From Elusimicrobiota bacterium (GTDB taxonomy: Bacteria; Elusimicrobiota; Elusimicrobia; UBA1565): a stretch of DNA of 64,000 nucleotides. The translations under genes and the position numbers were made by a program. Positions 1,339-14,038 of the stretch are shown one piece after another. Below the pieces are notes generated by a model. It saw only the letters and a program-made list of their open reading frames with translations. It was not told the DNA's origin and ran no database searches. The stretch lies in assembly GCA_041660925.1 (NCBI GenBank), contig JBAZVI010000003.1, positions 221,832-285,831 of the forward strand, written 5' to 3'. How positions within the stretch are numbered: position 1 is the stretch's first letter; each line of letters starts with the position of its first letter.

Positions 1339-2766
1339 ATGACTCCTTCTAACGCAGCCCTTCCCGACATCATCGTAGGCGGAATGGGCATCGACGTGTC
1401 CAGCGTCGAGCTCGTTTCGACCGTCGCCAATCACCCCTCCGGCCGCTGTTCCGGCAGCCTCTCCGCCACGGCCCTCCCCGAGGTGTACGCGCGCATCCTT
1501 CAGCTCGGCGACCCTGAAGGAAAGGTGCGCGAAGCCTTCGAGGCCTGCGGTCGCGCCGCGCCCGCGCTCGCCGCCGAGATCGACGCGCTCTACCGGCGCT
1601 TCCACATCGCCGGCGGCAAGGCCGCCGACGCCTTCTTCCGCGGGCCCTCCATGGCGGGGATGACCCCTCCGCGCGACGTCCAGATCCTGACGGTGGCCGC
1701 GACCTTCGCGCACGTCTGGCGCGCGAAGAAGGCCGCGCCCGGCCGGCCCATCGGCATCAACTTCCTTCGAAAGATCGACCGCATCCTCCTTTTCGGCATC
1801 TACGGCGCCATGCTCGGCCGCGCCGACTGGATCGTCATGGGCGCCGGCGACCCCGGCGACATCCCGGCCATCATGAACGCCTTCGCCCGCCACGAGCCCG
1901 CCGAGCTCGCCGTGCCCGTCGCCGCCGTCCCGCGCGGCACGCATCGCATCCGCTTCGACCCCAAAGACCTCGTCGGGAACATGGCGCCGCCGCCGCGTCC
2001 CGCCTTCTACGCCATCGTGAGCTCGCACCTGCAGGCGCGCGCGCTGGCGCTCTCGGCCGAGAAGCGGCCCGAGGGCTTCGTCATCGAGGGCCCCACCGCG
2101 GGCGGGCACAACGCCCCCCCCGTGAAGGGCGGACGCGACGCGCGCGGCTATTGCGTCTACGGGCCCGAGGACGACGCCGACCTCTCGGCCGTCGCGGCCC
2201 TCGGCCTTCCCTTCTGGATCGGCGGCTCCTGCGGCTACCCCGAGTGCCTCAAGGGCATGGGGCCGTGGCATCGGCGCATCCAGGTCGGCACGCTCTTCGC
2301 GCTCTCGAAGGAATCGGGGATGGCGCCGGAAGTGCGCCATCAGGTCCTCGAACTCATCTGGAAGCGCAGACTCGAGGTGGCGACGATGGCCAACGCCTCC
2401 CCCAGCATGTACCCCTTCAAGGTCGCGCTCGCGCCGGGCACCCTCGGCGACGACACCGTCTACGCCGCGCGCAAGCGCGTCTGCGACGTGGGCCACCTGC
2501 GCAGCTGGCGCTTCCACGGCGACGAGCTCGTCGGCCTCTGCCCGGCCAACGATCCCGAGCGCTACACCGGTTCCGGCGGGCCCGCCTGGCGCACGAAGGG
2601 CTCCATGTGCCTCTGCAACGGCCTGCTCGCCGCCCGCGGCCTGAGTCTCGAGGGCGAGACGCCCGTCGTCACGCTCGGAGACATCGGCTCGGTGCGCATC
2701 CTGCAGAACCGTCTGCGGCGCATCGAGTACACCGCCTCCGAAGCCGTCGACTACCTCCTGTCCTAG
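1339..2766 (+). CDS. Nitronate monooxygenase (NMO/2-nitropropane dioxygenase) family FMN oxidoreductase, long form
   Basis: N-terminal IIVGGMGIDVSS and the central GFVIEGPTAGGHN motif (NMO E-G-x-E-A-GGH signature); antisense ORFs are low-complexity. Confidence 0.55.
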   Translation: MTPSNAALPDIIVGGMGIDVSSVELVSTVANHPSGRCSGSLSATALPEVYARILQLGDPEGKVREAFEACGRAAPALAAEIDALYRRFHIAGGKAADAFFRGPSMAGMTPPRDVQILTVAATFAHVWRAKKAAPGRPIGINFLRKIDRILLFGIYGAMLGRADWIVMGAGDPGDIPAIMNAFARHEPAELAVPVAAVPRGTHRIRFDPKDLVGNMAPPPRPAFYAIVSSHLQARALALSAEKRPEGFVIEGPTAGGHNAPPVKGGRDARGYCVYGPEDDADLSAVAALGLPFWIGGSCGYPECLKGMGPWHRRIQVGTLFALSKESGMAPEVRHQVLELIWKRRLEVATMANASPSMYPFKVALAPGTLGDDTVYAARKRVCDVGHLRSWRFHGDELVGLCPANDPERYTGSGGPAWRTKGSMCLCNGLLAARGLSLEGETPVVTLGDIGSVRILQNRLRRIEYTASEAVDYLLS

Positions 2767-2928
2767 TCGGGGATTCCTTCAGTCGAGATCGTTGCCGTGC
2801 ACCGTTCCAGCGGGCGGGTGGGCGGTGGCGCCTGGCAGCAGGTTCGGCTCGGAGAACGTCGAAAGACCGAACCGGCTGCCGCCGGATCCTCGTCCTAAGC
2901 TGTCATGGGCCGATCCAGGAGGAGTTCG

Positions 2929-3357
2929 ATGAGCTTATCGAAGGACTATTTCCGGCGTTCGATCCTGCTCGCGGCGTTCCTCGCCGTCGCCGCGCCCGCC
3001 GGCACGCCGCTCGCCGAGCCGGGCAAGCGCGCCGCGCCGGCGCCCGTCGTGCTGAGCGCGTACGACCGCATCCAGTACGCGGCGGACACCGGCGAGCTGA
3101 CGCGCAAGGAGGCCGTCCTGCTGACGGCCGAGCTCCTCTTCATCCCCTCCCTCATCCCCAAGGATTCCAAGTTCGCCCTCAAGGCGGGCGACGTCCTGAC
3201 GCGTGAAGAGGGGGCGACCGGATTCTACAAGGACGTTCACCGGGTCTTCGCCCAGCTCGACGCGCAGGAGCGCCGCTTCCTGAGGGGCCTCAGTCCTTCC
3301 CTGGAAGCCATCATCTCGACGAAGGAACAGGAAGAGAAGGCCGCGCGGAAGAAGTAG
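2929..3357 (+). CDS. Small secreted hypothetical protein (signal peptide LLAAFLAVAAPAG)
   Basis: ORF 2905..3357; the internal ATG at 2929 is preceded by AGGAGG (ccaggaggagttcgATG); cleavable signal peptide; composition rich in K/E/F/Y. Confidence 0.5.
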   Translation: MSLSKDYFRRSILLAAFLAVAAPAGTPLAEPGKRAAPAPVVLSAYDRIQYAADTGELTRKEAVLLTAELLFIPSLIPKDSKFALKAGDVLTREEGATGFYKDVHRVFAQLDAQERRFLRGLSPSLEAIISTKEQEEKAARKK

Positions 3358-3399
3358 CTCCACCCTCCCCGCCCACCGCGGCGGTGCGCGGCGGCTTTC

Positions 3400-6300
3400 C
3401 TAGTCGACGACGCTGAAGAGGTCTTCGGGCTGCGCCTGGAGGAGGCCGTCGGCGGCGAGGCGGTCGTACTGCGCGAGGAGGCCGGCGAAGAAGTCCCGGC
3501 CGACGAGGCGGATGTCCATCTTCGGCGCCTTGCCCCGGTACTTGTTGAGCGCGATGAGCCGGGTCGCTTCCTTGAGCGCGTCGGGGCCGGGCGTCACGAC
3601 GTAGGCGTCCCCTTCCCGGCGGACGGAGCTTCCCCCCGCCGCTTTGCGCTTCGCGGGCGCGATCTTGAGCGGCGTCCCGACCAGGGCGAGGATCTCGTCG
3701 GCCGAGTCGACGACCGAGAAGAGCTCCTCGGGGCGGTGCGCGAGCAGGCCCTGCGCGTGGGCCCGTGCATACTGCTCGCTCAAGCCGCGGTAGTACTCCT
3801 TGCCGACGAGGATGATGCGCTTGGGCGCGGCGCCGAGGTCGTTGCCGTCGATGAGCGCCGAGACCTCCTCGAGCGACGAGGCGCCGCCGGGGAACAGGAG
3901 GAAGTGGTCCGAGGCCTTCGCGAACTGCCCGACGCGGGCGCTCTCGGACTCGGCGGTGCCGATGGCGCGGGAGCGGACGATGTCCTCGTCGCCCCAGGTC
4001 GGGATGCGGACGATGGCGAGGTTCTCCCCCGGCACGACGCCCTCGCGCGGCTTCTCCTGGGAGCCGACGGCCGCGGCCTCGAAGGCCGCGCCCATGACGC
4101 CGGCGTTCCCGCAGCCGGAGAGGATGTTGTAGCCGCGGGCGATGAGCTCGGCGGCCACCTTCGCCGCGACGGCCATGGCGGCGAGGATCTTCTCGTCGGT
4201 GCGCGAGCTGCCCAGCACGGTCACGGTCATCGCGCGCGAGGCGTGCGCTGCGTAGCGCTCGTCGAAGGCCGGGATGTCGGCGAAGGTCTTGGGGCGGGGC
4301 GCGTCCACGGAGGGCCTCCAGGCGCCGGTCTTCCAGGCGGCCTTCACGCGGTCGGCGGCGGCCCACCACGCGTCGAGCGATTCCCAGCGGCCGGTCTTCG
4401 CGTCTTTCTCGACGGGGACCGAGAGGGTCTCCACGGCGAAGCGCGGGTCTGCGAGCGAGCCGCCCAGCTCGGCCAGGTCCCAGACGAGCTCCTTCTCTCG
4501 GATGCGGTCCCAAGCCCGCCAGCCGGTCCAGATGTAGGCGCGGTTCTCCATCACGCGCAGGTATTCGTCCGTGTCCGCCGGGCGGCCGAGGATGTCCTTC
4601 GGGCGCTTCGCGATGAGCGCTTTGTTCAGCGGCAGGCGCATCTTCACGAGGGTCAGCGTGCGCGGGGTGGCCCAGGAGATCTGGCGGGTGAGGTAGCTGA
4701 GGGCCGTCTTGGGGTCGAGCGTCGTGAAGATATGGGAGCCGAAGCGGCCCGCTTCGTCGGGCTCGGCGTAGTCGTCGTAGTGCATGTCGCCCATCGTGCC
4801 CGAGGCCTTGGCCGAGTTCAGGCCGCCGCGCAGGCCGCGATAGACCGTCACGTAGGGTTCGCCGTCGACGTATTCGATGCGGGTCGGGGAGAAGGGGAGG
4901 AGGAAGCGGAGGGAGGGGCCGGCGGGCGTCTTGAGAGCGGCCTGTTCGGGCGGCGCGGGTCCGGATCTCGACGCGCCCTTGCGCATCAGAAGGCCGATCG
5001 TGAGCGCGGCGAGCGCGCTGACCGCGACGTTGACGCCGAAGAGGATGGCCGGCATCGTGAGCACGGCGCCCACGGCAGGGAAGAGGCGCGAGGCGCTCAC
5101 GGCCATGAAGATGGGCAGCATCGCGGCGATGCTCGCCGTCATCATCCACTTCGAGAGGTTGCGGTACTTGTCCTGGGGGAGCTTCTCGGAGTAGTAGGTC
5201 ATCCACTTGTTCGAGTTGATGGTGATGAGCCCGCCCAGGAGCCCCGCCAGCGCGAAGGTGAGCATCGGCAGTTGGAGGAAGGTGGACCAGACGAAGGCGG
5301 TCGCCGCGAGCGCGCCGAGCACGGTCCAGCCCTTGCGGCCCAGCGCCTTCTCGGGCAGGAAGGCGAGGGTGGCGAGCAGGCCCGCGAGCCAGCTCCCCCC
5401 GTCGTAGAGTCCGATCATCGTCCCGGCGGCCGAGGGCGCCGAGAACACGCTCAGCGCCAGCACCGTCGCGAGCACGCCGTAGACCATGAAGTGCATGAAG
5501 CGGAAGAAGGCGTAGGGCAGGTACTCCCCCCAGGAGAGCCGGGAGCCTTCCTGCGCCGAAGGCTTCGACTCGGCCCCCTCCTTGGGCGCGGGAGCGGGCT
5601 TCGTCCAGGGCTCCTTGAACTTGAGGGAGGCGTAAAGAGCCGTCGAGAGGCCGATGCCGATGCTCGAGACCACCATCATCGCCGGTCCGCCCAGGAGGTT
5701 GAGCAGCGGCACCGCGGCGAAGAGGGCCATGACGATGCAGGCGACCTCGACCCACTGGTAGGCGTAGTTGAGGCCGAGCTCGAGCTTCGCGGGGTTCTGG
5801 TTGCCGATGATCATGCGCGGAAGGAGGTTCTCGGCGACGCCGCGGTTGACGCCGTAGACGAGGCCGCCGACGATGGAGTTGGCGAGGAAGAGCCCGAACA
5901 TCACGGCGTTCGTCGCTCCGAGCGCCGCGGCGATGGGGATGGGGAGGCCGGAGACGGCGAGCGCGAGGATGGCGGCGACGTTGACCCACTTCGGGTTGAA
6001 GCGGGCCATGAAGGCCGAGCCCATCCAGGCGCCGGCGACGCGCATGACGTAGCCGATGCCCGCGATCATGAGCGCGGCGGGCAGGCCGAAGAGCGATGCG
6101 GTGAACAGCGGCAGGGCCACCGCCTGCACCTCCTGCGCCATCGCGTTGACGGTCCAGGCCGGGACGAACCCGAGGTGGAAGGAGCGCGGCAGCATGCGCA
6201 GGCGGCCGAGGGCGCCCGCGCGCTGGAAGTCGATGCGGTCGACCCAGTCCTCGGCGAGGGTGCGGCCCTCGCTCGAATCGTGGCCGTAGAGTCCGTCCTG

Positions 6301-8295
6301 GACGACGATCCGGCCGTTCTCCGTATCGATCTCGAAGCGCACGCCCTTGAGGAGCTCGTAGAGGCGGTCGCGCGCGGAGGCCTCGTCCTTGCCGCGGACG
6401 GTGATGTTGCCGAGGAGGTCGCCCTCGCCGACCTTGGCGCCCGGCTGGAGGAAGAGCTCGGAGAGGAAGACGGCTCCCCCCTCCTTCGGGAGGCCCTGCA
6501 CGCTCTTGAGCGTGCCGGCGGCCTTCGCGATGAAGAAGCGGTGCTGGAGGAGGACCGGCTCGCCGCGCGGCTCGGGGCGGCTCTCGAGCGAGAAGGCCGC
6601 GAGCAGGCCCTCGCGCATGACGTCCACCCCGTAGGATTCCTTGAGGCTCGCCCAGATGTCGGCGCCGCCCATGCGGGCGTTGATCTCGACGATGGGCGCG
6701 GCGAGCTTCCCGCCCACCAGCGTGAGGATGGCCTCGACGTGCGCGTTGCCGGTCTTGAGGCCGACGGCGTCGAGGGACTTGAGGGCCTGGGCGCGGGCGA
6801 GCTCTTCCATCTCCTTCGGCAGCCGCAGGCCGTAGGTCGTGCCGCGCTCCTGGTTCCCGAGGGCGGGCGGGTTGTAGCTCACGGAGGTGAAGACGGCCTT
6901 GCCTTCGCGCACGACGACCTCGACATCGGTCATGAGCCCGTCGGGGATCTGCGCCTCGAAGAGCACCGGGGGCTTCTCGTCGACCTGCTTGCTGCGGGCC
7001 TTGCGCGGGTCCGTGCGGGCGAGCTCGTCGATCTTCCCCTCGATGTCGCGGAAGGCGGCCTCGGCGGCCTCCGGGCTGTCGATGTCCAGCGTCACGCCCC
7101 AGCCGCCGCCGCCCGAGTCGGGCTTGGCCACGGCCTTCTCGAAGCCGGCGGCCTTGATCTTCTTGAAGGCCTCGCGGGCCTCGGCCGCGCTGTGCGCCTG
7201 GAAGGCGGGCAGGTGGAGGCTCGGGTCGCCGTAGGCGTTCATGAGTTCGCGGGCCCGGATCTTCGAATGCGCGGCGCTCACGGCCTCCGGCGAGAAGCCG
7301 GGGACCCCGAGCCCCTCGGCCAGTTCGGCCTCGAGCTGGGCGTAGGCGTTGAGGTAGGTCTTCACCGCGTCGATGCGGCGGGTCTTCGCGATGCCCTTCG
7401 CCTGCTCCACGATCGCGCGCAGGTTGTCGGCGGAGTGGCCGCCGACGTCGGCGGAGTAGTAGTTGCCGGGGAGGATCCCCTTCGAGACGGCGAAGTCCTT
7501 CTGGTCCGGGTAGCCGAGGACGAGGAGCTCGAAGCCGAGCTCTTTCGAGAGCGCCGCCATGTGCTCGTAGAGGTAGTCGCGGCCGCCGACCTTGGAGACG
7601 ACGTAGAGCAAGGATTTCCCCGCGAGCGGCTTGTCCGCGGGCAAGGCCGGGGACAGCGAGGAGCGCTTCCGCCCGTTCGTGCCCGAGACATCGAGGACAG
7701 GCTCTTCGGTGGAGCCTGTCCTTCCGCGGCCTTCGAAGAGAAGTCCGGTCGCCGCGCGGGTCTTCTCCGTCCCCGCGCCGGGCTCGGCGAGGGTCTCGGA
7801 GACCTCGGTCTGGCCGGTCTTCGTCGTTTCAAGGACGGAGACCGGAGCCTTCTTGTCGGAGGAGGCCTTGGCGGGAAGGATCGCGTCCTTCGCCGGGAGC
7901 GGGAGGGACTTCGATGCTTCGGCTGCCGGGATGATCGCGGCGTTCGCGGCCGGGGTCTTGAGGGTCGCAGCGGCCGCGGCGCTCTGGACCGTCGGCTGGA
8001 CGGAGGGCGGGGTCGGGAGGGCGAGCCCGTTGGTGAGCGGCGCGATGTTCGGAGCCGCGAGCGGTGCGAGCTGGACCGACGGCGCGACCGCGGTCGGTAC
8101 GACGGGGGTCCCCGCGGTCGTCGCCGATTGGGCGGAGCTGGCCGCGGCCTGACAGAACGCCTCCCCTGATAAGGAAAGGACCAGGCAGGCCGAGAGGAGC
8201 GCGGCGAAGCCCTTCTTCAGTTCACGCACGATATGAAGGATAGCCCCCCGCCCGGATTCCAGCAAGGGGTCGAAGGGGCAGGGAGCATGGGCCAT
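3400..8295 (-). CDS. Giant multidomain fusion protein: N-terminal hydrophobic segment + Ala/Pro/Thr-rich linker, ATP-grasp ligase domain, 12-TM MFS transporter domain, unknown domain (about 250 aa), LOG-family (TIGR00730-like) domain, partially duplicated LOG C-terminal segment
   Basis: A single uninterrupted 1631-codon frame. ATP-grasp motifs AVAKPDSGGGGWGVTL and EINARMGGA. Long hydrophobic block with MFS-like helices. LOG motifs VTVLGSSR, GCGNAGVMGA and PGGASSLEEV. The opposite-strand 1477-aa and 892-aa ORFs are compositional junk. Confidence 0.6.
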   Translation of the reverse strand: MAHAPCPFDPLLESGRGAILHIVRELKKGFAALLSACLVLSLSGEAFCQAAASSAQSATTAGTPVVPTAVAPSVQLAPLAAPNIAPLTNGLALPTPPSVQPTVQSAAAAATLKTPAANAAIIPAAEASKSLPLPAKDAILPAKASSDKKAPVSVLETTKTGQTEVSETLAEPGAGTEKTRAATGLLFEGRGRTGSTEEPVLDVSGTNGRKRSSLSPALPADKPLAGKSLLYVVSKVGGRDYLYEHMAALSKELGFELLVLGYPDQKDFAVSKGILPGNYYSADVGGHSADNLRAIVEQAKGIAKTRRIDAVKTYLNAYAQLEAELAEGLGVPGFSPEAVSAAHSKIRARELMNAYGDPSLHLPAFQAHSAAEAREAFKKIKAAGFEKAVAKPDSGGGGWGVTLDIDSPEAAEAAFRDIEGKIDELARTDPRKARSKQVDEKPPVLFEAQIPDGLMTDVEVVVREGKAVFTSVSYNPPALGNQERGTTYGLRLPKEMEELARAQALKSLDAVGLKTGNAHVEAILTLVGGKLAAPIVEINARMGGADIWASLKESYGVDVMREGLLAAFSLESRPEPRGEPVLLQHRFFIAKAAGTLKSVQGLPKEGGAVFLSELFLQPGAKVGEGDLLGNITVRGKDEASARDRLYELLKGVRFEIDTENGRIVVQDGLYGHDSSEGRTLAEDWVDRIDFQRAGALGRLRMLPRSFHLGFVPAWTVNAMAQEVQAVALPLFTASLFGLPAALMIAGIGYVMRVAGAWMGSAFMARFNPKWVNVAAILALAVSGLPIPIAAALGATNAVMFGLFLANSIVGGLVYGVNRGVAENLLPRMIIGNQNPAKLELGLNYAYQWVEVACIVMALFAAVPLLNLLGGPAMMVVSSIGIGLSTALYASLKFKEPWTKPAPAPKEGAESKPSAQEGSRLSWGEYLPYAFFRFMHFMVYGVLATVLALSVFSAPSAAGTMIGLYDGGSWLAGLLATLAFLPEKALGRKGWTVLGALAATAFVWSTFLQLPMLTFALAGLLGGLITINSNKWMTYYSEKLPQDKYRNLSKWMMTASIAAMLPIFMAVSASRLFPAVGAVLTMPAILFGVNVAVSALAALTIGLLMRKGASRSGPAPPEQAALKTPAGPSLRFLLPFSPTRIEYVDGEPYVTVYRGLRGGLNSAKASGTMGDMHYDDYAEPDEAGRFGSHIFTTLDPKTALSYLTRQISWATPRTLTLVKMRLPLNKALIAKRPKDILGRPADTDEYLRVMENRAYIWTGWRAWDRIREKELVWDLAELGGSLADPRFAVETLSVPVEKDAKTGRWESLDAWWAAADRVKAAWKTGAWRPSVDAPRPKTFADIPAFDERYAAHASRAMTVTVLGSSRTDEKILAAMAVAAKVAAELIARGYNILSGCGNAGVMGAAFEAAAVGSQEKPREGVVPGENLAIVRIPTWGDEDIVRSRAIGTAESESARVGQFAKASDHFLLFPGGASSLEEVSALIDGNDLGAAPKRIILVGKEYYRGLSEQYARAHAQGLLAHRPEELFSVVDSADEILALVGTPLKIAPAKRKAAGGSSVRREGDAYVVTPGPDALKEATRLIALNKYRGKAPKMDIRLVGRDFFAGLLAQYDRLAADGLLQAQPEDLFSVVD

Positions 8296-8370
8296 AGGGT
8301 CTATGCATAAACGTTCCCATTGTGCCTGTTCCCCGCAGCGAAACGTGAAAGGTGTGGGGCAGCCCCCTCT

Positions 8371-8780
8371 TCAGGGGGTCGCGGGCGGCGGCGGCAGGAC
8401 CTTCGCGATCTTGGCGAGCACGGCCTTCATCTCGAAGGGCTTCACGATGTAGTCGCGCGCGCCGAGCGAGAGGCACTGCTCGACGGTGTCGAAGCGGTCC
8501 TGGGCGGAGCACATGATGATGGGGACGTCCTTGAGGCGCGGATCCTTGCGGATGTTCGCGATGCACTCGGGCCCGGTGAGCTGCGGCATGTTGACGTCGA
8601 GGAGGATGAGGTCGGGGACCTCGGAGGCCGCGATGCGGACCGCCTGCGCGCCGTCGGCCGCCTCGACGACCCGCCAGCCCTGGGACTCGAGCAGGTTCCC
8701 GAGCAGGCCGCGGATGACCACGTCGTCGTCGGCGACGAGGACGGTCCGCTGCCCCTTCTTCTTCCCGAAGAACCAGCCCA

Positions 8781-8781
<1 letters not shown>
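8371..8781 (-). CDS. Single-domain response regulator (CheY-like receiver, 136 aa)
   Basis: C-terminal 136 aa of ORF 8371..10209 read MGWFFGKKKGQRTVLVADDD..LILLDVNMPQLTG..KPF (receiver D-D-K signature); the rest of that ORF is R-rich junk. ATG overlaps the OPT gene stop (ATGA). Confidence 0.8.
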
Positions 8782-10718
<1,937 letters not shown>

Positions 10719-10730
10719 GTCGGTCTCCCC

Positions 10731-10759
10731 GTCGGGAATCCTTGACGGGGATTCCCGAC
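10731..10759. repeat. Palindromic element GTCGGGAATCC-ttgacgg-GGATTCCCGAC (11-bp perfect arms); second copy at 47021..47048
   Basis: Read directly from the sequence; it sits 13 nt upstream of the OPT start codon and downstream of the receiver gene stop. Confidence 0.7.
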
Positions 10760-10839
10760 CTGTCTACAAAAGTTGTTTCCGGCGCCTGGAATGACTTGCT
10801 GAAACCGTCCTGCGAAACGCCGCTGCGTTTCGCAGGCTA

Positions 10840-11244
10840 TTATACACCGTCTCCCTTCCTCTCCGGCGGCGCCGTGAGCAGCTCGCGGATGCGGCCGAGG
10901 AGCTGCTCGGGCGTGAAGGGCTTGGAGATCCACGCGTCCCCGCCCGCGCTGACGCTCTCCTTGAAGGACTCCTCGGGGTTCATGGCGGTCATGAAGAGCA
11001 CCGGGGTCGTCCGCGTCTCCGCGCGCTCGCGCAGTTGCCGGCAGACCTCGAAGCCGCTGATGCCGGGCAGGAGGATGTCGAGGAGGATGAGGGCCGGGCG
11101 CAGCGCGACGGCGCGCTCGAGGGTGTCCTCCCCGTAGGCGAGGGGCTGGACGCGGTAGTCGTTCTTCAGGGTCCCCGCGAGGGCCTCGCGGATCCCCAGG
11201 TCGTCGTCGATGACGAGGATGAGGGGGCGGATGTCGTCGTTCAT
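10840..11244 (-). CDS. Single-domain response regulator (CheY-like receiver, 134 aa)
   Basis: C-terminal part of ORF 10840..13134 reads MNDDIRPLILVIDDD..LILLDILLPGISG..SKPF; ATG overlaps the stop of the radical SAM gene (ATGA). Confidence 0.8.
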   Translation of the reverse strand: MNDDIRPLILVIDDDLGIREALAGTLKNDYRVQPLAYGEDTLERAVALRPALILLDILLPGISGFEVCRQLRERAETRTTPVLFMTAMNPEESFKESVSAGGDAWISKPFTPEQLLGRIRELLTAPPERKGDGV

Positions 11245-13028
11245 GCGGCCTCCTTCCCCGCGCGGACGCGGGGTCTGAGCACGCGCCGGTAGCGCGTTTT
11301 GACGGCGTTGGACGGCGAGAGGAACTGGTCGGAGCCGAAGGGCTTGAAGCGGCGGGTCGCCAGGCGCACGAGGCGCGAGATGACGCCCTTGCGCGCGTGG
11401 CCGAAGACGGAGTAGAGGAACATCAGGAGCTCGATGTGGACGCTGTCCACCTCGAGGGTCGGCTGGATGCGCTCGAGCGTCTCGGTGACCGCGCGCGTCG
11501 AGTCCATGATCTGGCGGTCCTTCGCCTCCCAGGAGAGCCCCCCCACCTCGTCGAAGCGCTCGGAGTAGGCGCTGACGAACTCGTCGGCGGAGAACGGGTC
11601 GAGGGCGCCGGCCGGCGCCGGACGCAGGGACACGCCGAAGCGCCCCGGGGTGCGGTAGAGCGGCGAGCCGGGGTAGAGGTAGAAAGGGTTGAGAGAGTGC
11701 ACGTCGATGCAGTCGCGGTGCTCCTCGAGGAAGCGCACGGTGTCCGCGACGTCCGCGGGGGTCTCCGTGGGCAGGCCGCCGATGATCTCGATGTGGTTCC
11801 AGATCCCCAGCGCGTGGGAGCGGCGCAGGAAGCGCGAGGCGCGCTCGGGGGTCGTCCCCTTGCGGATGTAGCGCAGCAGGCGCGCGCTGCCCGTCTCGAG
11901 CCCGAAGGTCAGCTTCACCGCGCCCGATTCCCGCATCTTCTCGAGGAGGCGTTCGTCGAGCTGGCGGAAGTTCACGCAGTCGCACCACTGCAGGCCGAGC
12001 CGCGCGCGGACCATGCGCCCGCAGAGCTCGAGGGCGAAGTCGTAGTGGTTGTTGAAGTTCGCGTTGATGAAGTAGACGCCGGTGGCGCCCTGGTCCTTGA
12101 GCGCGCGCAGGTGCTCGACGACCTCGGCCGGGGTGCGGCGGTCGCTGCGGGTCTGGCTCGAGCAGAAGATGCACTGCCCCGCGCAGTGGGACTCGAAGCG
12201 GCTCATGAGCACGAGCTGCTCCCTGCCCCCGTGCTCGGCGAGGAGGCGGCGGAAGGCGGGGCCGGAGGCGTTGTAGCTCGCCAGGATGCGCCGCCCCGTG
12301 CGCCGGTAGAGCTCGAGCGGGTAGCCGCGGTAGTCGGGGAAGGTCAGCGGCGGATAGTGGCCCTGCATGACGCCCTTGAGGACGCGGCCCGAGGACGTAC
12401 GGCGGTAGACGTTGAAGGGCAGGCGGCGCTCGCGCTCGACGACGGCGTGCGCGAGCTGCTCGAGCTCGCGCTCTCCCTGGATGACGACGGCGTAGTCGAA
12501 GCAGGGATAGTCGCGCAGGATCTCGTAGTAGAGCTGCTTGGAGACGTCCTTGTGCCCGATGACGACCGGCTTGCCCGTGCGCCGGCGGATCTCGTCGGCG
12601 AGGAGCGCGGCCGCGTTGAGCAGGAACGGCGTCTTGAGGTCGGCCAGGGTGAGGCCGTAGAGGTCGGCCTCGGGAAGGGCGTCGCAGAGCGGCGCGAGGG
12701 CCGCGGCGGCCGCCTCGAGGGAACGGGCGCCCTTTCCCTTGAGCTTCCCGGAGAGCCACCGGGCGACCGCGTGCGGGTCGCGCAGCAGCGAGAAGTCGGT
12801 CCAGGGGTGCGCCGGCTTCACCTTGAGATGGAAGGGCACGTCGAAGTCGTGGAGCGTCGTGTCGATGCGCTTGCGGCGCAGGTGGGCCGCCAGCGTCGGG
12901 ATCGAGATGTTCGGGACGGGGAAGCACTCGTTGTTGCGCGTCTCGGCCGGCGGGACGATGAGCGCGACTCTCGCCCTGCGCGGGCGGTCCGCGGACGCTT
13001 TCTCCCGCGCCGGGCGACCGTGTGCCAT
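11241..13028 (-). CDS. B12-binding-domain radical SAM protein (595 aa)
   Basis: N-terminal B12-binding-like region (RVALIVPP..) followed by the CxxxCxxC radical SAM cluster motif (CAGQCIFCS) and a TIM-barrel-like remainder. Confidence 0.8.
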   Translation of the reverse strand: MAHGRPAREKASADRPRRARVALIVPPAETRNNECFPVPNISIPTLAAHLRRKRIDTTLHDFDVPFHLKVKPAHPWTDFSLLRDPHAVARWLSGKLKGKGARSLEAAAAALAPLCDALPEADLYGLTLADLKTPFLLNAAALLADEIRRRTGKPVVIGHKDVSKQLYYEILRDYPCFDYAVVIQGERELEQLAHAVVERERRLPFNVYRRTSSGRVLKGVMQGHYPPLTFPDYRGYPLELYRRTGRRILASYNASGPAFRRLLAEHGGREQLVLMSRFESHCAGQCIFCSSQTRSDRRTPAEVVEHLRALKDQGATGVYFINANFNNHYDFALELCGRMVRARLGLQWCDCVNFRQLDERLLEKMRESGAVKLTFGLETGSARLLRYIRKGTTPERASRFLRRSHALGIWNHIEIIGGLPTETPADVADTVRFLEEHRDCIDVHSLNPFYLYPGSPLYRTPGRFGVSLRPAPAGALDPFSADEFVSAYSERFDEVGGLSWEAKDRQIMDSTRAVTETLERIQPTLEVDSVHIELLMFLYSVFGHARKGVISRLVRLATRRFKPFGSDQFLSPSNAVKTRYRRVLRPRVRAGKEAA

Positions 13029-13261
13029 GGGCCAGATGATAGCAAACGCCCCGCCCCGCCCGAGGGCCCGCCCGATTCTCCCTCCCTCTTCGAGAGTTCG
13101 CGCTATCGGTTCCCTTACGGCGCGATCGCGGCACTATCAGCGTCTGGGTGTCGCCGAGGGTTAGGGGTGGGTAGAACGGATGGCTGTTTCGGCTGGGGTC
13201 AGCCGCCGCTGCGCGTTGCGGTGGGCGGGTGGGCGGTGGAGCCTCAAGGGTTCATGCAAGG

Positions 13262-14038
13262 CTAATGAGTATAGAAATGAGATTCGGATCCCTCTCCTAA
13301 CACACAGCCGACGCCCACATACCTCTTGCGTGCCAATTCAATTGGAGAAGTTTGCAGAGCAACATTATCTCGAGAGATGCCTCCCAGGAGCAGTGTCGCC
13401 TCATTAATCATGTTGGCGGGAATCGTGAATGTCAGGTCAAACCGAGTCCAGGGCTCGACGACAGTTGACGACACATTGAGGATGTATGTCCCATCGTTCG
13501 ATGGGGAGCAATCGGCGTTCACCCCGACAGAAGAGCCATCACCGAAGCAGGAAGCTTTGACGGATGCAGGCGCTAGAAGTCGTTCCCTGTTGATCCGTAG
13601 ACGTATCTCCTGTGGCCGCACTTTGAATTGGACGAGCGGTTTGTTTTTCCAGTAAGGCCAGTTGGTCTGCCGGAAGTCTAATGATACTTGCAGGTGTTCG
13701 TCAGAAATATCCCAATTCTTTCGATTCTTGATTGCCGAGTAGATTCCCAGGGGGTTTGGTATCAGGGCAAGCGGAAGCATGATGCATGGCCCGACGGATA
13801 GGATACTCTCGGTCACGCGTGGGTTCGCATAGACATAGAGCGGCGGATCTGTGAGCCTGACAAGAGGGCCCCATTCCTTCGGCTGGCCCTCCTTGTTTAT
13901 GTGGGAGGGGTCTGCAACCACCAAACCCTTTGAATAAGTCACATAGGCGCACGAGTTGAGGCACAAGCATGCGGCCGCGACGAGCACTGCTGACGATTTC
14001 TTGTGGATTAGCATGTAAGGTAGCAGCAATTTTGACAA
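13262..14038 (-). CDS. Hypothetical lipoprotein (lipobox LNSC) encoded in a low-GC island
   Basis: Signal peptide plus Cys lipobox; protein-like composition; local GC is far below the window average. An alternative start is at the M 8 codons downstream of the ORF start. Confidence 0.5.
   Translation of the reverse strand: MSKLLLPYMLIHKKSSAVLVAAACLCLNSCAYVTYSKGLVVADPSHINKEGQPKEWGPLVRLTDPPLYVYANPRVTESILSVGPCIMLPLALIPNPLGIYSAIKNRKNWDISDEHLQVSLDFRQTNWPYWKNKPLVQFKVRPQEIRLRINRERLLAPASVKASCFGDGSSVGVNADCSPSNDGTYILNVSSTVVEPWTRFDLTFTIPANMINEATLLLGGISRDNVALQTSPIELARKRYVGVGCVLGEGSESHFYTH

Follow-up and report, generated by a model that had tools for sequence, protein, structure and literature searches.

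A single reading frame of an Elusimicrobiota bacterium predicted to join an ATP-grasp ligase, a divergent MFS membrane domain, an ADP-ribosyltransferase-fold domain and a LOG domain

Does a single gene of an Elusimicrobiota bacterium really encode a ligase, a membrane transporter and nucleotide-related enzymes in one chain and, if so, what could such a protein do? The question is raised by an open reading frame (ORF) on the minus strand of a 64,000-nucleotide stretch of DNA (hereafter, the window; NCBI GenBank assembly GCA_041660925.1, contig JBAZVI010000003.1, positions 221,832 to 285,831). An initial annotation had described it as one uninterrupted frame encoding, in order, a hydrophobic N-terminal segment with an Ala/Pro/Thr linker, an ATP-grasp ligase domain, a 12-helix transporter of the major facilitator superfamily (MFS), an unassigned domain of about 250 amino acids (aa), and a LOG-family domain with a partial tail duplication. 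We find that this ORF is a genuine coding frame rather than a chance ORF of high-GC DNA, and the evidence points to a real, lineage-specific fusion, in which a domain with a predicted ADP-ribosyltransferase (ART) fold and a LOG domain appear to have been added to a conserved ATP-grasp–MFS core. The ORF and the parts of its product, from the N-terminus to the C-terminus, are as follows.

3400..8295 (including the stop codon), minus strand: fusion ORF, 1631 aa, ATG start
8146..8229, minus strand: signal-peptide-like N-terminal helix (aa 23-50), RELKK-GFAALLSACLVLSLSG-EAFCQA
7651..8145, minus strand: Ala/Pro/Thr-rich variable linker (aa 51-215)
7726-7833, minus strand: conserved linker motif of about 40 aa (aa 155-190), ...Q.EVS..L...E..R....FEG
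6226..7650, minus strand: predicted ATP-grasp ligase domain of the L-amino-acid-ligase type (aa 216-690)
4981..6198, minus strand: 12-helix membrane domain, putative divergent MFS (aa 700-1105)
4924..4980, minus strand: fusion junction 1, a 19-aa linker (KGASRSGPAPPEQAALKTP) from helix 12 to the ART-like domain, with no stop codon
4291..4923, minus strand: predicted ART-fold domain (aa 1125-1335)
3661..4290, minus strand: LOG-family domain (aa 1336-1545)
3403..3618, minus strand: LOG C-terminal half-repeat (aa 1560-1631), with a degenerate PG-PDALKE motif

This order (helix and linker, ATP-grasp domain, 12 helices, a middle domain of about 220 aa, LOG domain and half-repeat) agrees with the one first proposed, and so does the claim of one uninterrupted frame, on the strength of the third-position G+C (GC3) pattern and of three agreeing assemblies. 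The G+C content of the window is about 70%, and therefore long open frames are expected by chance; three overlapping ORFs of 892-1631 aa are indeed found at the locus. The coding one is the minus-strand frame 3400..8295, in which G+C by codon position is 0.67/0.49/0.95 and GC3 lies between 0.82 and 1.00 in every 50-codon block except the first, staying high through the C-terminal tail. A competitor on the opposite strand can be described as follows.

3736..8169, plus strand: antisense shadow ORF, 1477 aa, G+C by codon position 0.955/0.49/0.665

It is regarded as a shadow because its G+C peak falls at codon position 1. The databases differ in where the fusion protein starts: the NCBI coding sequence takes the GTG of codon 23 (8229) as its start and is 1609 aa long, whereas JGI/IMG and Logan carry the 1631-aa form. 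An internal start near aa 200, suggested earlier, is unlikely, as there is no Met between aa 1 and aa 246 and the conserved motif at aa 155-190, upstream of the proposed start, is translated in all relatives. In NCBI, the protein is labelled “MAG: LOG family protein [Elusimicrobiota bacterium]”, a public annotation that misses most of its content.

It could be argued that separate ligase-transporter, ART and LOG genes were merged here through sequencing or assembly error, and the fusion is indeed known from a single population, with relatives that encode its parts as separate proteins. Frame continuity was judged on three assemblies from different pipelines, and no indel was found among them. 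Logan contig SRR18595301_104735, an independent assembly of run SRR18595301, matches window 1900-9540 (7641 bp) with 100% identity, and the JGI metagenome contig Ga0172379_10080477 (2.6 kb), which corresponds to window 5091-2473 and covers both C-terminal junctions, differs by one mismatch and no gap. This sole mismatch, at window 4927, is a synonymous G/C third-position change (Thr1123, ACG to ACC) that sits within junction 1, the linker between the transporter and the ART-like domain; such a single nucleotide polymorphism is expected of a translated frame, and alone it is no test of selection. Inspection of both junctions (junction 2 lies near 4290, where the LOG domain abuts the ART domain without a linker or signal peptide) found no start codon, intergenic gap, ribosome-binding gap or signal-peptide remnant, and GC3 is continuous along the frame. 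An artefactual fusion is thus very unlikely, close to negligible in our estimation.

Which enzymes, then, are joined? The N-terminal catalytic part is most readily recognized. Its best solved relative is the L-amino acid ligase BL00235 (PDB 3vot; E = 3e-7 over about 300 residues), BacD (PDB 3wo1) matches at 2.5e-3, and the ATP-grasp part of NCBIfam PRK02186 is matched at 4e-13, while Pfam LAL_C2 (PF18603; gathering score 29.4) gives 26.8 bits with the whole protein and 29.7 bits with the isolated domain. The ATP-binding K391 with its Gly-rich loop (VAK391PDSGGGGWGV), the hinge (E447...E459) and the Mg site (HVE521...VE537IN539AR541MGG, i.e., E521 and E537-x-N539-x-R541) are invariant in 10 family members, and the Lys/Gly-loop and Mg motifs align to 3vot. 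Based on these matches and motifs, the domain is predicted to be a ligase of the L-amino-acid-ligase type with intact catalytic motifs, and the original ATP-grasp call stands.

The membrane domain is less easily placed. Hydropathy analysis reveals 12 hydrophobic helices, as originally claimed, arranged 6+6 around a basic central loop of 36 aa. The MFS assignment itself found no support in the protein's own sequence, as the membrane domain has no transporter match in Pfam or NCBIfam, even at E <= 10, and searches of the PDB with the single sequence and with 10- and 17-sequence family profiles retrieved no solved MFS protein by sequence. The assignment is supported indirectly, by way of relatives and of the loop charges described below. 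A profile search of a 5.8-billion-protein set recovered 13 more distant membrane-domain relatives (46-70% identity, E 1e-113 to 1e-215), and six of the eight that were scanned match Pfam MFS_1. The best of these matches (P0035) has E = 3.6e-8 and, at 33.1 bits, lies just under the gathering score (33.4); it covers positions 7-339 of the 347-position profile. It is followed by P0034 (4e-7), P0036 (4e-6) and P0027 (7e-5), and the MFS_1-matching relatives are tied to the membrane domain of the fusion protein at E of about 1e-117 to 1e-186. A comparison of the N-terminal with the C-terminal half (hhalign) showed no internal repeat, although it is little informative since the alignment is of very low diversity, and a profile search over all ORFs of the window and of the relatives' loci found no other membrane-domain relative. 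We therefore accept the domain as a putative divergent MFS transporter by transitive homology and topology.

What is the middle domain, which had been left unassigned at about 250 aa? A separate domain is present there, of about 220 aa, and it no longer lacks an assignment, since a structural model, Foldseek matches and a profile match to rat ART2.2 all point to an ART fold. Searched exhaustively with HMMER, 1.84 billion representatives yielded only eight ART-like relatives (228-342 aa, 38-49% identity); these are stand-alone metagenome singletons (P0015-22), each opening with a classical signal peptide, and pattern scans of 185,579 species-representative genomes found no ART-like relative. 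In the alignment of the nine sequences, VYRG is invariant, and (F/Y)-T-(S/T)-L, LPL..A..AK and (E/Q/D)-x-E-(L/V)-V-(W/F) are conserved. R1153 (of VYRG) is present in all nine, position 1192 of T1191-T1192 (FTTL) is S or T in all nine, and in E1267-K-E1269 (EKELVW) E1269 is invariant while position 1267 is E, Q or D.

A single-sequence AlphaFold (AF2) model of the domain was unusable (pLDDT 41), and a model built from the family alignment was used instead (pLDDT 81.7, pTM 0.78). The R, S/T and E motifs lie on predicted strands 41-51, 83-87 and 164-168 of this model, which are, as modelled, the strands that hold the R-S-E triad in cholera-toxin-like ARTs. Foldseek comparison with the PDB gave cholera toxin A1 or heat-labile enterotoxin A for all of the top 14 matches, with modest scores (E 0.017-0.08), and the best PDB sequence match of the family profile is rat ART2.2 (E = 0.11), aligned on the YRG and S-x-S motifs. 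Among curated ART sequence models, Pfam ART (PF01129) matches one of the nine ART-like members, at E = 0.25. Because no curated model matches and the structural scores are modest, we call the middle domain a divergent ART family rather than a member of a named one: it probably represents a family new to the ART superfamily, and its triad, R1153 / T1191-T1192 / E1267-x-E1269, is intact. A very rare ART-fold family with a predicted intact catalytic triad, overlooked by curated sequence models, is thereby defined.

The final domain was correctly recognized as LOG, with Pfam PF03641 (gathering score 27) giving 47.8 bits with the whole protein and 54.8 bits with the isolated domain, and with PDB LOG matches that reach 5e-11 with the PGG...EE motif aligned. 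It misses the TIGR00730 cutoff (47.3 bits vs. 96.35). Two motifs, SGCGNAGVMG starting at aa 1393 and PGGASSLEE at aa 1469, align to those of PDB 9us2 and 3qua; relative to GGGxxGxMG and PGGxGTxxE, the Glu residues and Gly-Gly are retained and G-T is replaced by S-S. The catalytic motifs may be intact. The tail duplication is likewise real, with 47% identity between the half-repeat and aa 1463-1535 in the second half of the LOG domain. Rather than a local accident, it appears to be old, because it is also present in the LOG relatives that occur as separate proteins (P0011-P0014; 405-465 aa, 53-60% identity). An Ala/Pro-rich region is found in all four of these relatives, and in three of them (P0012-14) it is an Ala/Pro linker that follows a signal peptide.

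Two side observations concern these LOG proteins. Stand-alone LOG relatives occur in Elusimicrobia (e.g., at 8001-9218 of locus L005), and it is unusual for a LOG enzyme to have a half-domain built in and to be, as it seems, exported. In the same locus (10724-12559), a 611-aa protein combines a signal peptide and an Ala/Pro-rich linker with a HAD-like DxDxT motif and, at its C-terminus, a hydrophobic helix; it represents another enzyme of a normally cytoplasmic type behind a similar N-terminal module in this lineage.

How did such an architecture arise? The alignment of nine core relatives (1002-1117 aa, 62-73% identity) extends over aa 20-1105 and no further, and all of them stop within a few residues past helix 12; the three that are named are Elusimicrobia metagenome-assembled genomes (MAGs), and all members of the ligase-transporter family known so far come from MAGs labelled as Elusimicrobia or from metagenome contigs without a label. 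In more distant relatives, which are MFS-only (556-696 aa), the N-terminal helix and linker are retained and the ATP-grasp domain is missing. ART and LOG are carried by the window protein only: no second protein with the same architecture was found among the 5.8 billion, and our literature search found no described protein that combines ATP-grasp, MFS, ART and LOG, which bears out the earlier impression that this architecture is undescribed. At both junctions, the homologous regions abut within 5-20 aa. Because the signal peptides of the ART and LOG relatives and the Ala/Pro linker of the LOG relatives are absent at the junctions, we consider this a true fusion rather than genes that were run together. 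The distribution of domains suggests that a conserved MFS core gained an ATP-grasp domain in one clade and later, in a single population, ART and LOG at its C-terminus, with precise loss of their signal peptides.

On which side of the membrane would these domains work? Averaged over ten sequences, the membrane-domain loops that share a side with the termini contain 26 Lys/Arg, compared with 0.1 for those on the opposite side, which indicates the canonical MFS arrangement, with both the N- and C-terminus inside (N-in/C-in). Such an arrangement would put ATP-grasp, ART and LOG on the cytoplasmic side of the membrane, within reach of ATP and NAD+. The N-terminal helix tells otherwise. It is Sec-signal-like, with a positive flank (RELKK), and is present in all relatives; its charge flanks predict an N-in/C-out orientation in every family member, and no further hydrophobic segment returns the chain before the start of the ATP-grasp or MFS domain. 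The predicted orientation of this helix contradicts an N-in MFS topology, and the contradiction is real, so that the doubt raised at the outset about a signal-peptide-like segment ahead of a cytoplasmic ATP-dependent domain was well founded.

If the N-terminal segment were a real signal peptide, ATP-grasp, ART and LOG would face the periplasm. The Sec-type N-terminus with its positive n-region, found throughout the family, would fit this arrangement, as would the signal peptides on eight of eight stand-alone ART-like and three of four LOG relatives, and the even number of helices would keep both ends of the membrane domain on the same side. However, MFS proteins are N-in/C-in, ATP and NAD+ are cytoplasmic cofactors, and the charge bias of the 12 helices, which sets both ends in the cytoplasm, strongly opposes an all-periplasmic arrangement. 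We judge a periplasmic location of the enzymes decidedly improbable, and favor the cytoplasmic one in what follows.

The helix and linker are of interest in their own right. The MFS clade (P0002-P0010, P0024-P0035), with or without ATP-grasp, always opens with a signal-like helix followed by about 170 aa of linker, and the motif of about 40 aa is carried by the ATP-grasp members and, as matched by a hidden Markov model of the motif, by two MFS-only relatives (P0025 and P0026). We rejected the idea that the LOG relatives share this motif, which occurs specifically in the MFS family. An MFS clade with such an odd N-terminus raises a membrane-topology question that can be tested directly.

Taken together, we hypothesize, with a confidence that is about evenly balanced, that the protein is a membrane-bound machine for ligation and transport to which an NAD+/ADP-ribose-processing pair has been added. 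In this model, the ATP-grasp domain would use ATP to form an amide (dipeptide-like) bond, and the fused MFS domain would carry the product of the ligase, or its precursor, across the membrane. This part of the model is drawn by analogy with BacD and BacE of bacilysin and with LplT and Aas, and by the same analogy the role first suggested, to make and export a small metabolite or to import and modify one, is still plausible. ART would use NAD+ to ADP-ribosylate a substrate, either the same small molecule or another, and LOG would then cut the ribosyl N-glycosidic bond, such that the pair may tailor or regulate what is ligated and transported. The tail is most simply read as an NAD+-dependent modify-and-trim pair because ART and SLOG/LOG domains are linked in NAD+-ADP-ribose networks, where conjugates of ADP-ribose come from ARTs and the cleavage of ribosyl N-glycosidic bonds is ascribed to LOG-type domains (PMC9503650); it may act on the ligase's product, on a protein or as a regulator. 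The case for the fusion as such is independent of this functional reading. A bolder version, which we consider unlikely, would make the four parts a miniature pathway: ATP-grasp forms the amide, ART ADP-ribosylates that same small molecule, LOG trims the adenine or nucleotide part, and MFS exports a ribosylated peptide conjugate. If true, this would be a new route to a peptidyl-(phospho)ribosyl metabolite, and, for the first time, a cholera-toxin-like ART joined to its own exporter would have a role in biosynthesis rather than as a toxin.

Do the neighboring genes tell what is transported? Two genes lie directly upstream.

8371..8781, minus strand: CheY-like receiver-domain protein, 136 aa, hidden within a mechanical ORF (8371..10209) and shown by the Logan gene table
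8781..10718, minus strand: OPT-family oligopeptide transporter (Pfam PF03169, 5e-91)

The ATG of the receiver gene and the OPT stop codon overlap, and 75 nt separate the end of the receiver gene from the ATG of the fusion ORF. Because of this overlap and this spacing, OPT, receiver and fusion ORF probably form one operon, while the gene downstream of the fusion ORF (2905-3357, plus strand) is convergent. An OPT gene also adjoins the MFS clade elsewhere: in locus L008, one that is 78% identical to that of the window (3755-5695) lies directly upstream of the MFS-only P0027 (6001-7917), which is 62% identical in the MFS domain, so that OPT stands beside the clade in two loci. In another locus (L006), an alanine racemase gene (4708-5781) directly precedes the MFS-only P0035 (6001-7755), which may hint at D-amino-acid or peptide chemistry for this clade. 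In the loci of the nine relatives, no recurrent partner was found besides OPT in one locus. A scan of the leader regions with Rfam found no riboswitch, and a promoter and terminator scan was uninformative. Further upstream of OPT, a radical SAM protein (595 aa; 11241-13028, minus strand) shows a weak PADLOC match to the candidate model PDC-M51A (E = 9e-9), the sole match in that scan, and G+C falls to 0.54-0.60 at window 13001-14000, vs. about 0.70 around it.

These neighbors lend some weight to an alternative in which the protein is no synthase-exporter: MFS, perhaps together with OPT, would import a compound for salvage, and the cytoplasmic enzymes would modify it at the membrane. Importer genes of the OPT family adjoin in two loci, an alanine racemase gene lies beside an MFS-only relative, all enzyme domains are on the predicted cytoplasmic side, and LplT-Aas offers a precedent, natural fusions included, since LplT and Aas are fused in some bacteria (PMC11416262). 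However, an ATP-grasp enzyme of the L-amino-acid-ligase type with a dedicated MFS protein is typically biosynthetic and paired with an exporter, as in bacilysin synthesis, where BacD is the ligase and BacE confers self-protection (PMC2797259); genes for catabolism or salvage are also absent from the operon, and sequence does not decide in which direction transport runs. Import and modification is therefore a tentative possibility, which we hold doubtful.

Is the C-terminal pair functionally connected to the transporter at all? ART-LOG could instead be a toxin-like or NAD+-depleting effector cassette, or a regulatory nucleotide sensor, that was captured by chance at the C-terminus of a membrane protein. 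The pair occurs in one family member only and past the conserved end point, recalling variable C-terminal toxin cassettes; the nearest structural matches of the ART domain are toxins, the stand-alone relatives are secreted proteins, and SLOG domains can serve as sensors (PMC9503650). In a polymorphic toxin, by contrast, one would not expect a ligase-transporter as the N-terminal part, and no immunity-like gene follows the toxin-like domain on the same strand, where the next gene is convergent. Moreover, PADLOC gave no match for the fusion protein, its C-terminal part or the two flanking genes, there is no secretion-system or Rhs-type delivery domain, and ART and LOG are fused precisely, with signal peptides lost and GC3 high throughout the tail. 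Chance capture of an independent tail thus seems improbable to us, and the reading of the protein as a ligate-and-transport machine with an NAD+/ADP-ribose-processing pair is retained.

Several points nevertheless weigh against this preferred reading. The direction of transport is no more readable from sequence here than for the salvage alternative. The MFS assignment comes from the sequences of relatives and from topology. The fusion is confined to one population, and the signal-like N-terminus, together with the signal peptides of all stand-alone ART and three of four LOG relatives, argues for an extracytoplasmic location, in conflict with the topology indicated by charge bias. No ART or LOG gene is found near the core relatives, no ART-like or LOG gene elsewhere in the window, and the neighborhoods of the ART-like relatives hold no LOG, MFS or ATP-grasp gene. 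Beyond the fusion itself, nothing independent ties the C-terminal pair to the core. If the four activities share one substrate, the fusion would be a Rosetta stone that ties the ligase-transporter family to NAD+- and nucleotide-derived chemistry, and a compact target for heterologous expression and metabolite discovery.

Compared with known coupled systems, the closest analogy for the core is BacD (YwfE) with BacE of the bacilysin operon, which likewise pairs an L-amino-acid-ligase-type ATP-grasp enzyme with an MFS-type membrane protein. Here, however, both reside in a single polypeptide, with the ligase N-terminal to the transporter, the similarity to BacD is low, no anticapsin-type biosynthetic genes lie nearby, and the chain has an extra N-terminal helix and linker as well as the C-terminal ART-LOG pair. 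The lysophospholipid transporter/acyltransferase LplT-Aas resembles the present protein in that an MFS transporter is coupled or fused to a cytoplasmic-face enzyme acting on the transported substrate. The enzyme classes differ, with an acyltransferase and acyl-ACP synthetase in LplT-Aas and putative ATP-grasp, ART and LOG enzymes here, and the NCBIfam and PDB-profile searches of the membrane domain revealed no sequence relationship.

The C-terminal pair has its counterpart in NAD+-ADP-ribose processing networks, where ART occurs with SLOG, Macro or NADAR domains and a domain that conjugates ADP-ribose is paired with a SLOG/LOG domain whose predicted role is the cleavage of ribosyl N-glycosidic bonds (PMC9503650). 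Those networks are phage-defense or counter-defense modules, whereas PADLOC indicates no defense context here, and the pair is fused to a ligase-transporter. With the cholera-toxin-like (R-S-E) ARTs (CT-A1/LT-A, pertussis S1, ArtA/PltA, Scabin, the Rhs toxin TreX and ecto-ART2.2), the middle domain shares an Arg, an S/T-x-S/T and an E-x-E motif on the expected strands of its model. In contrast to them, it belongs to a tiny family, with eight clusters among the 1.84 billion representatives, and, instead of being secreted, is predicted to be attached to a transporter at its cytoplasmic end. The LOG domain has the Rossmann-type domain, GxGxxGxMG loop and PGGxxxxEE motif of the LOG cytokinin riboside 5'-monophosphate phosphoribohydrolases (PF03641, TIGR00730), but falls below the TIGR00730 cutoff, reads PGGASSLEE instead of PGGxGTxxE, adds a conserved C-terminal half-repeat and has relatives with signal peptides. 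Every part of the protein thus comes from a known superfamily, and what is new is the four-part enzyme/transporter fusion, the rare ART-fold family and the unnamed MFS clade.

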